From: Parachlamydiales bacterium
Lineage (GTDB): Bacteria > Chlamydiota > Chlamydiia > Chlamydiales > Rhabdochlamydiaceae
DNA: 64,000 nucleotides
Direction: 5' to 3'
Assembly: GCA_963705295.1 (NCBI GenBank)
Contig: OY970065.1
Location: forward strand, 1-64,000
Below are positions 1,288-2,754 of this stretch, one piece after another; within the stretch, counting starts at the first letter, position 1; each line of letters starts with the position of its first letter. Below the pieces are notes generated by a model. The model made no database searches. It was not told the origin of the DNA and saw only the letters and a program-made list of their open reading frames with translations. Both the position numbers and the translations under genes were made by a program.

Positions 1288-1470
1288 ATGCATACACCTG
1301 AAAAATATTTTCAAAGCCTGCAGCAATCGATCAAAGAGCTCCATATCAAGGATGAAACCATCCATCTCTTGATCGAATCGATCCAAGAAAAATTAGATTC
1401 TCCCGATGAAGCCCTTACACTGATCGATCAACTCGAAGAAGTCCTCGACGTCGAACTCTTCTACAGTTAA
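1288..1470 (+). CDS. Small acidic helical hypothetical protein (possible T6SS accessory)
   Basis: 60 aa, amphipathic helices, ends LIDQLEEVLDVELFYS; directly after tube gene. Confidence 0.55.
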   Translation: MHTPEKYFQSLQQSIKELHIKDETIHLLIESIQEKLDSPDEALTLIDQLEEVLDVELFYS

Positions 1471-1703
1471 TCGTCGACGGTGTCGAGCCAGGCGCGGAAT
1501 TCGGGATCGAAATAAAAATCCCACCACTCAGACGGGACATTCCATGTCTTTAGATACTCTTCTTGCTGGGTAGCGGTGAGCGAGTTCCAATACGGTTCCC
1601 AAACATAGACAAACCAGATTTCACCCGATTGTCGCCAGAACGGATCTCCAGGAGGAAATCCAGGATATTTAACCCATGGGGGTACGATCTGTTCGTTATT
1701 CAT
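1467..1703 (-). CDS. Small Trp/Pro-rich protein, candidate immunity/antitoxin
   Basis: Likely start MNNEQ at 1703 with GGAGG RBS; overlaps upstream toxin gene by 8 nt; PPWVKYPG...WRQSGE...W..L...QQEEY...VPSEW pattern. Confidence 0.7.
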   Translation of the reverse strand: MNNEQIVPPWVKYPGFPPGDPFWRQSGEIWFVYVWEPYWNSLTATQQEEYLKTWNVPSEWWDFYFDPEFRAWLDTVDD

Positions 1704-2754
1704 GCTCTTCCTCCAGGTCGATATACTGAGCAATCCAGTTAAATCCGAAATACCCTGCAACTCCGCCGATGAGTCCACCCACAGCTCCTGTTGCCAGAGC
1801 AAACGGACCGGTTTCGATCCCGAGGAGAGCACCGGTAGCCGATCCTAACTTTGCTCCAATGACTGCCGATCCCCAGCCGCCGACTTGCCGGACAGTTTCT
1901 GCAGCTAAGGGGCGAATCGATCCTTTTTCGTATGATCTTACACTCGCATTTTTTATATCAATCGCTGTGAAAACAATACCAACAACTTGGACACCTTGCA
2001 GCCCACGCGTGATAAACATCGCCTTTCCACCTTTGACAGCCTTCGCGGGGATGAATCCTTCAATGCAAACTTCTTTATCAATGAAGCTAGATTTATGAAG
2101 AATATTTTGAATTTTATCTAGATCTTTCACCCGTTTGGTTTTTTTGGAAATACGTGTGAGATCGGCTAAAATGTCATCGGCATCGTGGATAATAGCTCCC
2201 GATTTTTCGAGCTTTTTAACATCGATCCAATATCTTTTTCCAGGAAAACGGGGCGATCCGAAAGGAAGCTCACTCGCCGATATGAATTTACTATCGGTTC
2301 TTCCAAGAACGTGCCGACCAAGAGAAACAGAGGAGTTCGGATCTCGTGGAAAAAAACCGTATGTCTCAGGATTCATAATTTTCATGACGAGCTCGGGATT
2401 GTTTTGTATCCCTTGGGGAAAAATGACTTTTCTCACGAGTTTTTTGGTAAAGGGATTGAGCTCATCGGCGACAATAAATAGAAAAGACCTTGCGAGTGTT
2501 GTCGTCGCACGGCGGTTTGCAATCACCGAAGCAGCAGGGTTTGTAACGCGCTGCATTCTTTGTTCTGGCTCGCCCGATTTATTGGGCGAGAAACGTCTCA
2601 TGTCGGGAAGCTGAAGGGTTTGTCCTACAAAAATAAGATCGGGATTGTCAATCCGATTGAGCTCAGCGATTTCTTTCCAACGCATCGGATTGCCGAGCTC
2701 GTGATCTGCGATATTCCAAAGCGTATCTCCGTGACGGATTAAATGGGATGGCAT
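1696..2754 (-). CDS. LysM + putative ADP-ribosyltransferase-like domain + glycine-zipper tail (candidate toxin/effector)
   Basis: LysM aa 3-50 (GDTLWNIA...WKEIAELNRIDNPDLIFVGQTLQLP); R108, GFFP, HVLG...FISAS (S159-S161), DKEV...GFIP (E228); C-terminal GxxxG-rich helices. Confidence 0.7.
   Translation of the reverse strand: MPSHLIRHGDTLWNIADHELGNPMRWKEIAELNRIDNPDLIFVGQTLQLPDMRRFSPNKSGEPEQRMQRVTNPAASVIANRRATTTLARSFLFIVADELNPFTKKLVRKVIFPQGIQNNPELVMKIMNPETYGFFPRDPNSSVSLGRHVLGRTDSKFISASELPFGSPRFPGKRYWIDVKKLEKSGAIIHDADDILADLTRISKKTKRVKDLDKIQNILHKSSFIDKEVCIEGFIPAKAVKGGKAMFITRGLQGVQVVGIVFTAIDIKNASVRSYEKGSIRPLAAETVRQVGGWGSAVIGAKLGSATGALLGIETGPFALATGAVGGLIGGVAGYFGFNWIAQYIDLEEEHE

Follow-up and report, generated by a model that had tools for sequence, protein, structure and literature searches.

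A two-gene cassette in a chlamydial type VI secretion locus

The window analyzed here, bases 1-64000 of the single 2,131,910-bp contig (OY970065.1) of a Parachlamydiales bacterium, carries near its start a pair of reverse-strand genes set between forward-strand genes of a type VI secretion system (T6SS). The first of the pair (1696..2754, reverse strand) is an open reading frame (ORF) whose translation of 352 amino acids comprises a LysM domain, a linker, a predicted ADP-ribosyltransferase (ART) domain, and a Gly-zipper tail; we refer to it as the toxin gene. The second (1467..1703, reverse strand, with the ATG at 1703-1701 and the stop at 1467) codes for 78 amino acids and is immunity-like as judged from its ORF, its conserved linkage to the toxin gene, and a predicted complex of the two proteins. 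Each gene is present in one copy in the genome, and neither translation begins with a signal peptide. We describe the pair as a candidate T6SS effector with its immunity protein.

A preliminary description of this DNA, made from the sequence alone, had proposed an N-terminal LysM, a middle domain with a set of short motifs, and an overlapping 78-amino acid gene with a GGAGG ribosome-binding site, and all three are found. The LysM covers residues 6-50 (2605..2739, reverse strand) and matches Pfam PF01476 with an E-value of 4.2e-10, at 39.9 bits against a family cut-off of 20.9; its structural matches in VIA-align reach Z-scores of 8.0-8.1. The strings LVR(108), GFFPRD, HVLGRTDSKFISAS(161), YWID, and DKE(228)VCIEGFIP are all present in the ORF at the residues so numbered. 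The two genes overlap by 8 nucleotides (nt) (ATGAATAA), and the GGAGG (1710..1714, reverse strand) lies 6 nt before the ATG of the small gene, inside the last codons of the toxin.

The predicted ART domain (residues ~100-245; 2020..2457, reverse strand) is drawn from structural models and conservation and includes R108, H148, S159/S161, and D226-x-E228. The C-terminal Gly-zipper/hydrophobic helical region (residues ~247-345; 1720..2016, reverse strand) is drawn from predicted helices, hydropathy, GxxxG counts, and weak Pfam matches. An AlphaFold2 (AF2) model of the toxin, built on 25 homologues, has a mean predicted local distance difference test score (pLDDT) of 77.9. Residues 58-100, the linker, have poor pLDDT in this model and are predicted to be disordered. 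The toxin has 167 homologues at E≤0.001, and identity to it is 35-57% among the 120 listed.

The middle domain resembles R-S-E clade ADP-ribosyltransferases

Averaged in blocks of 10 residues, the pLDDT of the AF2 model is 79-97 over residues 101-240 and 77 for residues 241-250. Comparison of the model with the PDB using Foldseek gave pertussis-like ARTs (EcPltA, CARDS toxin, pertussis S1) at all of ranks 1-16, with probabilities of 0.93-1.00. The best match was EcPltA (E 3.5e-3), and cholera toxin and PltC ranked lower. VIA-align, which is independent of Foldseek, returned nine matches restricted to residues 94-255, each of them to an ART-superfamily protein, with Z-scores of 5.9-8.3. They are EcPltA (8.3 over 115 residues, with a root-mean-square deviation of 3.2), TreX (7.8, 105 residues), Scabin (7.8), pertussis S1 (7.4 and 7.2), EcPltAB (6.9), CARDS (6.9), KptA (6.9), and pierisin (5.9).

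ARTs of the R-S-E clade carry the pattern R / S-x-S / [QE]-x-E, as given in the available portions of two reports (PMC3482391; PMC11606950). We counted residue conservation over 30 diverse ART-domain sequences of the toxin family. R108 is kept in 29 of them, H148 in 29, S159 in all 30, S161 in 29, and E228 in all 30. Position 226 is Glu in 17 and Asp in 13, with E-G-E in divergent members, and the serine motif in the family reads [FYW]-x-S159-x-S161. R108, S159/S161, and E228 fall on predicted strands 105-110, 157-161, and 228-232 of the AF2 model. The arrangement expected of the clade, with an Arg on the first strand, S-x-S at the end of a strand, and an acidic-x-E ahead of another, is found in the predicted model.

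Several results weigh against this assignment. The toxin model had no Foldseek match in the PDB at E≤0.001, and by the tool's own caveat best VIA-align Z-scores of 7-8 are common for models that have no true match. The structural scores are therefore modest, and both searches depend on a predicted model. The toxin of the window has D226 at the first acidic position, not Glu or Gln, which departs from the textbook motif. Pfam ART families (among them Pertussis_S1, Enterotoxin_a, and ADPrib_exo_Tox) were not matched by the toxin at E≤0.1, nor by any of the 30 domain sequences at E≤5. A sequence-profile search of the PDB with the toxin found the LysM alone, plus the Rhs protein 9zdm_B at E 0.15. 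By these profile searches the toxin is not assignable to any Pfam family of ART toxins.

We give the structural evidence weight because Foldseek and VIA-align agree and the motifs fit. The preliminary description had recognized an R-S-E layout in the middle domain and proposed comparing the domain with ART structures; both searches match ARTs only, at modest scores, and R / S-x-S / acidic-x-E is near-invariant in the family. From the predicted model we infer that the domain most likely has the fold of the cholera/pertussis-like R-S-E clade of ARTs.

Only one Pfam signal recurred over the ART domain. DUF7587 was matched by eight of the 30 sequences, with a best E-value of 0.002, and a literature search for DUF7587 found no paper. 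This uncharacterized family may be a distant ART-like relative, given weak matches that include proteins P0361 and P0294.

The downstream gene codes for a candidate immunity protein

The 78-amino acid protein has a net charge of -9, nine Trp residues, and a maximum hydropathy of 0.07, and hence no hydrophobic segment. An acidic protein of this type fits a cytoplasmic protector against an enzyme that acts in the cytoplasm. In a word-based search the single sequence found only itself and one relative at 65% identity. Small genes downstream of toxin homologues do share a motif with it, PPW-x-FP ... W-x-QG ... W-x-PFW-x-L ... YL ... W. A hidden Markov model (HMM) was seeded with 23 of these downstream sequences and run on six-frame translations of 40 loci encoding the toxin. 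It matched directly downstream of the toxin gene and on the same strand in 35 of the 40 loci, 13 of them outside the seed, and its single match away from a toxin gene was a second copy in L036.

The five loci with no small-gene match are L001, L010, L029, L038, and L040. L001 and L010 offer only 107 and 221 nt of downstream DNA. The other three have at least 2.7 kb of it and no immunity-domain match there, which counts against the effector-immunity reading. The extra immunity domain in L036 (8240-8440) lies 4.2 kb downstream of the toxin. In L023 (916-1659) a downstream protein of 264 amino acids carries up to three tandem immunity-domain matches.

The small-protein family has no match in Pfam. 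The model of the 78-amino acid protein is confident and all-helical (pLDDT 83.6) and has no structural match, the best Foldseek hit having an E-value of 6.6 and the best VIA-align hit a Z of 4.7, with none at 5 or above.

We predicted the complex of toxin residues 95-250 with the small protein, supplying each as an alignment, in three runs with three controls. The interface score ipSAE was 0.89 in all three runs, compared with 0.09 for the best control. Among solved complexes, 116 of 157 reach the tool's mark for this score, and among mismatched pairs two of 215 do; these counts are only roughly valid for user-supplied alignments. At least 89% of the contacts are common to the runs, and the partner has a pLDDT of 88 or more. 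The predicted interface joins small-protein residues 17-30 to toxin residues 108-113, 147-153, 159-161, 226, and 228, including R108, H148, D226, and E228. The prediction supports binding of the small protein over the catalytic cleft, and we infer that it would confer immunity by occlusion. TriX occludes the active site of TreX in the same way, according to the available part of the TreX report (PMC11606950). The effector-immunity pairing proposed in the preliminary description agrees both with the presence of the partner in 35 of the 40 loci and with the predicted position of that partner on the cleft.

A Gly-zipper tail follows the predicted ART domain

The AF2 model has three helices in the tail, over residues 243-349. 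Moderately hydrophobic stretches lie at 247-272, 295-315, and 316-342. Gly makes up 25% of the 61 residues 285-345, where [GAS]xxx[GAS] occurs 16 times. Membership in the Pfam glycine-zipper families was not found, as Gly-zipper_Omp scored 17.6 bits at 299-335 against a cut-off of 25 and Gly-zipper_YMGG scored 13.4 bits against 28.9. Judged by its motif pattern, the tail would work like a glycine zipper without belonging to either family. VIA-align also gives a weak match to SlyB (Z 6.5). In the long listed proteins that we checked (856-3897 amino acids), about 100-130 residues follow the ART domain to the C-terminus.

The tail is also the best conserved part of the toxin. Over residues 281-345 the majority-residue fraction is 0.72, compared with 0.56 for the ART domain, and many of the Gly residues are invariant. 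This counts against the enzyme as the center of the toxin, as the C-terminal membrane region could be the principal toxic part. The Gly-zipper region would then be a pore-forming or membrane-depolarizing weapon, and the ART-like domain either degenerate or an accessory binding module. The retention of the tail after the ART domain in every homologue checked, the weak resemblance to SlyB, and the permeabilization of membranes by Gly-zipper motifs in Tde1 (PMC10240207, in the portion available) all favor such a weapon. We nonetheless judge it unlikely. The residues of catalytic type are invariant or nearly so, and a non-enzymatic module would not need them. The partner is soluble and acidic rather than a membrane protein. 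It is also predicted on the ART cleft and not on the helices, a result from a prediction whose input was limited to toxin residues 95-250.

The LysM domain probably binds peptidoglycan

The preliminary description had placed the LysM among those of phage tails and contractile injection systems (CIS) and suggested that it might dock the toxin. As put there, this is not supported. In VIA-align it does match LysM domains of CIS baseplates (9gtp, Z 8.1; 9g8s, 7.8; 7aeb, 7.5; 9qgl, 6.5), but cell-wall LysM domains are matched equally well (for example 4uz2, Z 8.0), and PG_binding_1-like domains substitute for the LysM in some homologues. An NCBIfam search with the toxin matched the LysM portion alone. 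The domain most likely binds glycan, and among glycans most likely peptidoglycan. We favor peptidoglycan binding over a pure docking role because of the PG_binding_1-like replacements. The LysM shares its slot in the architecture with PAAR, Hcp, Rhs, and eCIS_core in other members of the family, and for that reason it may also dock the toxin onto the secretion apparatus.

The position of the gene between conserved T6SS genes, together with the CIS baseplate matches, would also suit a structural LysM protein of the contractile apparatus, similar to a baseplate or tube-initiator component, and not a toxin at all. This is close to refuted. The alignments with 9gtp_P, 9g8s_T, 7aeb_M, and 9qgl are limited to the 50-56 residues of the LysM, which occupies residues 1-57 of the toxin model as opposed to ~167-240 of the CIS baseplate chains. 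In VIA-align, the rest of the model matched none of these tube-initiator or baseplate chains. The gene is absent from related T6SS clusters, and homologues exchange the LysM for PAAR, Hcp, Rhs, or eCIS_core while keeping their private partner gene. On the LysM-only alignment, the missing gene in related clusters, and the N-terminal exchanges we rejected a structural role.

The cassette is inserted into the T6SS locus

To the left of the cassette lies a gene of 195 amino acids (658..1245, forward strand), called the tube gene in the preliminary description, and to its right lies tssK (2846..4066, forward strand; PF05936, E 3.6e-32). The 195-amino acid ORF has no match in Pfam, NCBIfam, PDB sequences, or the ESM Atlas. 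We class it as a conserved gene of the T6SS cluster by its syntenic homologues in two relatives, which are 22-29% identical and stand in the same place directly before tssK.

We compared the locus with 40 relatives, 18 from the same genus, 6 from the same family, and 16 from the same order. Three of these 40 gave LysM-only matches, and the toxin itself was found in none. Homologues of tssK were found in only four of the 40, and the T6SS is therefore sporadic in the lineage. Two of these four (G022 and G006) have the homologue of the 195-amino acid gene, tssK, tssE, and vgrG in this order and no cassette; the first two genes stand 38 and 16 nt apart there, and in the window 1.6 kb apart. Because the same gene order exists without the cassette in these two genomes, the cassette is an insertion, as had been proposed before any relatives were compared. 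The inserted segment (1246..2845) is delimited by the gap sizes in relatives, by G+C content, and by its absence from them. The G+C content is 0.42-0.49 in the cassette and 0.35-0.40 in the flanking T6SS genes. No convincing repeats bounding the insertion were found, and scans for promoters and terminators gave consensus-level sites only. The closest relatives of the toxin among the 120 listed homologues, at 52-57% identity, belong to bacteria of soil type, Rokuibacteriota and Terriglobia among them. By sequence comparison, the cassette was most likely acquired by horizontal transfer, and recently.

Two further features were noted in the inserted segment. A putative ORF for an acidic, helical protein of 60 amino acids (1288-1470, forward strand), with no family match, runs convergently with the immunity gene, and the ends of the two share 4 nt. 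A hairpin with a perfect 8-bp stem (1254-1277) directly follows the 195-amino acid gene, is terminator-like on both strands, and sits at the left edge of the insertion.

T6SS genes are found at both ends of the record. The last 15 kb code for TssB, TssC, IglE_N, DUF4280 (PAAR-like), ImpA_N, TssF, DotU, and a weakly matched TssG. This places the gene pair within a T6SS cluster that continues across the origin of the record.

The predicted toxin module is polymorphic

A profile of the ART domain matched 285 clusters (at 50% identity) at E≤0.001, 183 at E≤1e-10, and 54 at E≤1e-30. We then analyzed 35 host proteins from the 40 loci, with L006 and L040 excluded and three loci lacking an intact ORF. 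The N-terminus is a LysM in 17 of the 35, a weakly matched PG_binding_1 in two, and SpvB/TcdB in one, and has no Pfam domain in 15. The SpvB/TcdB (Tc-type) fusion with the toxin module is 2513 amino acids long. Among 42 long homologues, six carry RHS, seven LysM, two a weak PG_binding_1, and one each Hcp, PAAR, and eCIS_core, the other 24 having none. A PAAR gene is directly upstream in four of four short-form loci tested.

T6SS core genes are encoded in the examined flanks of 13 of the 40 loci, and Pfam confirmed them in L002, L011, L015, L021, and L024. In a Terriglobia metagenome-assembled genome (MAG), the toxin comes directly after tssK-tssL-tssM. Stutzerimonas and Pseudomonas encode it between tssA/B and tssF/G/clpV, with tssC also there. 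The homologue in Salmonella enterica subsp. arizonae (L015) directly follows vgrG, and that in Chryseobacterium follows three hcp genes and a vgrG. From these architectures and gene orders, the ART plus Gly-zipper module reads as a polymorphic toxin cassette, fused to or found beside PAAR, Hcp, VgrG, Rhs, Tc, and eCIS parts.

In the other 27 loci no T6SS gene was found in the examined flanks, several of which are on short contigs, and this weighs against a T6SS effector. For carriers of the LysM type with no T6SS neighbor, TssC is encoded in nine of ten genomes, while in the remaining one, a 2.5-Mb MAG, no TssC was found. A second chlamydial cassette of LysM toxin and immunity gene is present in a Parachlamydiaceae MAG (L019, 7980-9240) whose genome encodes TssC. 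Both of its frames are interrupted as assembled, possibly by frameshifts or read errors.

The same 27 loci would suit a non-secreted toxin-antitoxin or abortive-infection module that landed in a T6SS cluster by chance, as would the two-gene, translationally coupled layout of toxin and neutralizer. We regard such a module as very unlikely. The toxin is fused to secretion and trafficking domains in its homologues, and an N-terminus that binds peptidoglycan is of use, on a protein lacking a signal peptide, only once that protein has been exported. The TssC counts in the carrier genomes also argue for secretion. The neighborhoods of homologues had been suggested in the preliminary description as a check, and the survey gives T6SS genes in 13 and the small partner in 35 of the 40 loci. 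Four features of T6SS effector-immunity pairs are present, namely a neighborhood with T6SS, vgrG, hcp, or PAAR genes, fusions to trafficking domains, a downstream immunity gene, and predicted cover of the active site.

The host of the window's cassette is a chlamydia, an intracellular organism, and its T6SS cluster includes the Francisella-like parts IglE_N and DUF4280. Its PheT is closest to entries labeled Rhabdochlamydiaceae, Chlamydiae, and Neptunochlamydia, and to Verrucomicrobia MAGs that are probably mis-binned, at 49-69% identity. The nearest structural matches of the toxin include host-directed toxins and DNA-modifying ARTs. These points would fit a toxin aimed at the eukaryotic host, with the small protein preventing self-harm before export from a toxin whose target (a nucleic acid or a universal GTPase, for instance) is also present in the producer. 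A host-directed toxin seems to us rather unlikely. The module and its partner are found in free-living soil and water bacteria too, in T6SS, PAAR, and Rhs settings of the kind usual for interbacterial toxins. The LysM and PG_binding_1 domains point to peptidoglycan, and the cassette is a recent acquisition not found in the 40 relatives.

Relation to known toxins

T6SS effectors of the ART type with protein immunity are known, among them Tre1, TreX, and TreTu (PMC11606950, PMC12288458, and PMC13617354, each in the part available). TreX/TriX of Xenorhabdus bovienii and Tre1/Tri1 are similar to the pair described here in having an R-S-E ART, a T6SS setting, and a small neighboring immunity gene, the product of which is predicted to block the active site (PMC11606950). 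Although TreX is among the best structural matches of the toxin, the two have no detectable sequence relation, and the N-terminus is Rhs in TreX but LysM in the toxin of the window. The C-terminal Gly-zipper region is always present in our module and is not described for TreX in the available text of that report (PMC11606950). TriX is not among the matches of the small protein, which has neither a Pfam family nor a fold match.

The best fold matches, EcPltA, pertussis S1, cholera toxin A, and CARDS toxin, share with the toxin the layout R...H...aromatic-hydrophobic-S-x-S...acidic-x-E-hydrophobic strand...P. Identity to the A subunits of pertussis-like AB5 toxins is 11-20% in the structural alignments, with no match to Pertussis_S1 or Enterotoxin_a. 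Unlike those toxins, the toxin of the window has no B subunit and no signal peptide. Its bacterial T6SS context and its immunity gene suggest a bacterial target, again unlike AB5 toxins.

Tde1, a T6SS DNase of Agrobacterium, needs its glycine zipper for membrane permeabilization and prey entry (PMC10240207, in the available portion). Like the toxin, it combines repeated GxxxG motifs with an enzyme that has to get into the cytoplasm of the prey. The zipper of Tde1 is N-terminal and also binds an adaptor, whereas that of the toxin is C-terminal, spans about 100 residues in two to three helices, and is better conserved than the rest of the module.

The Tox-ART-RSE domains of Zhang et al. (PMC3482391) are likewise R-S-E ARTs at the C-termini of polymorphic T6SS toxins. 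In the accessible part of that study, the immunity families listed for them are Imm41 and ADP-ribosyl glycohydrolase and not the partner family found here. The Salmonella STox ART entries are known to us by accession number alone, and one of them may overlap with the toxin family. A literature search found no paper describing the toxin family, its obligatory Gly-zipper tail, or the immunity family, and neither family has a functional annotation in Pfam or NCBIfam. On these comparisons, we class the pair as a new family of the known T6SS ART effector-immunity kind.

Proposed mode of action

We consider it likely that the pair is an antibacterial-type T6SS effector-immunity cassette, with an ART toxin that ends in a Gly-zipper tail, and that the chlamydia acquired it horizontally. 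The T6SS would export the toxin. In the prey, the LysM would tether it to peptidoglycan, with the flexible linker following. The two to three Gly-zipper helices at the C-terminus would enter the inner membrane of the prey, carrying the ART domain to its cytoplasmic side or holding it there, and might also damage the membrane themselves. The ART domain would then spend NAD+ to ADP-ribosylate a cytoplasmic target. In the producer, the co-translated and translationally coupled 78-amino acid protein would stay in the cytoplasm and plug the NAD+/substrate cleft, shielding the producer and its kin.

A broader proposal is more tentative, and we hold it as possible but doubtful. The module would be an undescribed one that spans phyla, in which a cholera/pertussis-like ART carries a C-terminal Gly-zipper device for crossing the prey inner membrane, with no need of a prey receptor, once the T6SS has injected it into the periplasm. 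It would include a LysM tether, and its immunity protein would have a fold without known relatives. The chlamydia, as an obligate intracellular bacterium, would have taken it up for use against bacteria in the same host cell.

Other features of the T6SS cluster

Downstream of tssK are two more genes of the cluster. A gp25/TssE-like gene (3918..4382, forward strand; PF04965, E 8.3e-6, 26.0 bits against a cut-off of 27.2) probably has its true start later than the listed TTG. It is followed by a VgrG-like gene of 693 amino acids (4389..6470, forward strand), identified from weak matches to VgrG in the PDB (E 1.3-1.4) and from its position after tssE in relatives, where identity is 28-30%.

Two genes of the cluster (L042, 2112001-2131910, plus window 1-6470) are of Francisella type, one IglE_N and lipoprotein-like, the other DUF4280 and PAAR-like. 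A gene of 1121 amino acids with no Pfam match, in the last 15 kb of the record, occupies the place expected for TssM or PdpB. An inverse-autotransporter beta-domain (PF11924, E 9.3e-12) is encoded by a gene of about 400 amino acids that crosses the origin of the record, from window 2-478 (reverse strand) into L042 19187-19909 (reverse strand). It lies on the opposite strand within the cluster and adjoins a gene of 226 amino acids with no reliable family (DUF4605, E 0.0092, below the cut-off). Just upstream of tssB, a gene of 331 amino acids (L042 4204-5199, forward strand) has a sub-threshold match to a bacterial EndoU nuclease toxin (E 0.0024) and may be another effector.

Elsewhere in the window are genes for a leucine-rich-repeat protein (17177-18691, forward strand) and a Sel1-repeat protein (24505-26178, reverse strand). 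Both are eukaryote-like repeat proteins, a class common in intracellular bacteria.

Implications

To our knowledge, T6SS ART effectors are a small and actively studied group in which every new family has revealed a new cellular target. A limited literature search found no description of such chlamydiae competing with other bacteria. Neither "T6SS" nor "type VI" occurs in two chlamydial genomics papers, and the T6SS in a coral study is that of Endozoicomonas. The layout of an enzyme with an obligatory Gly-zipper would offer a clean system for asking by what route T6SS cargo gets from the periplasm, where it is delivered, into the cytoplasm. The recent insertion of the cassette in the T6SS of an environmental chlamydia suggests that intracellular bacteria of this sort compete with other bacteria.

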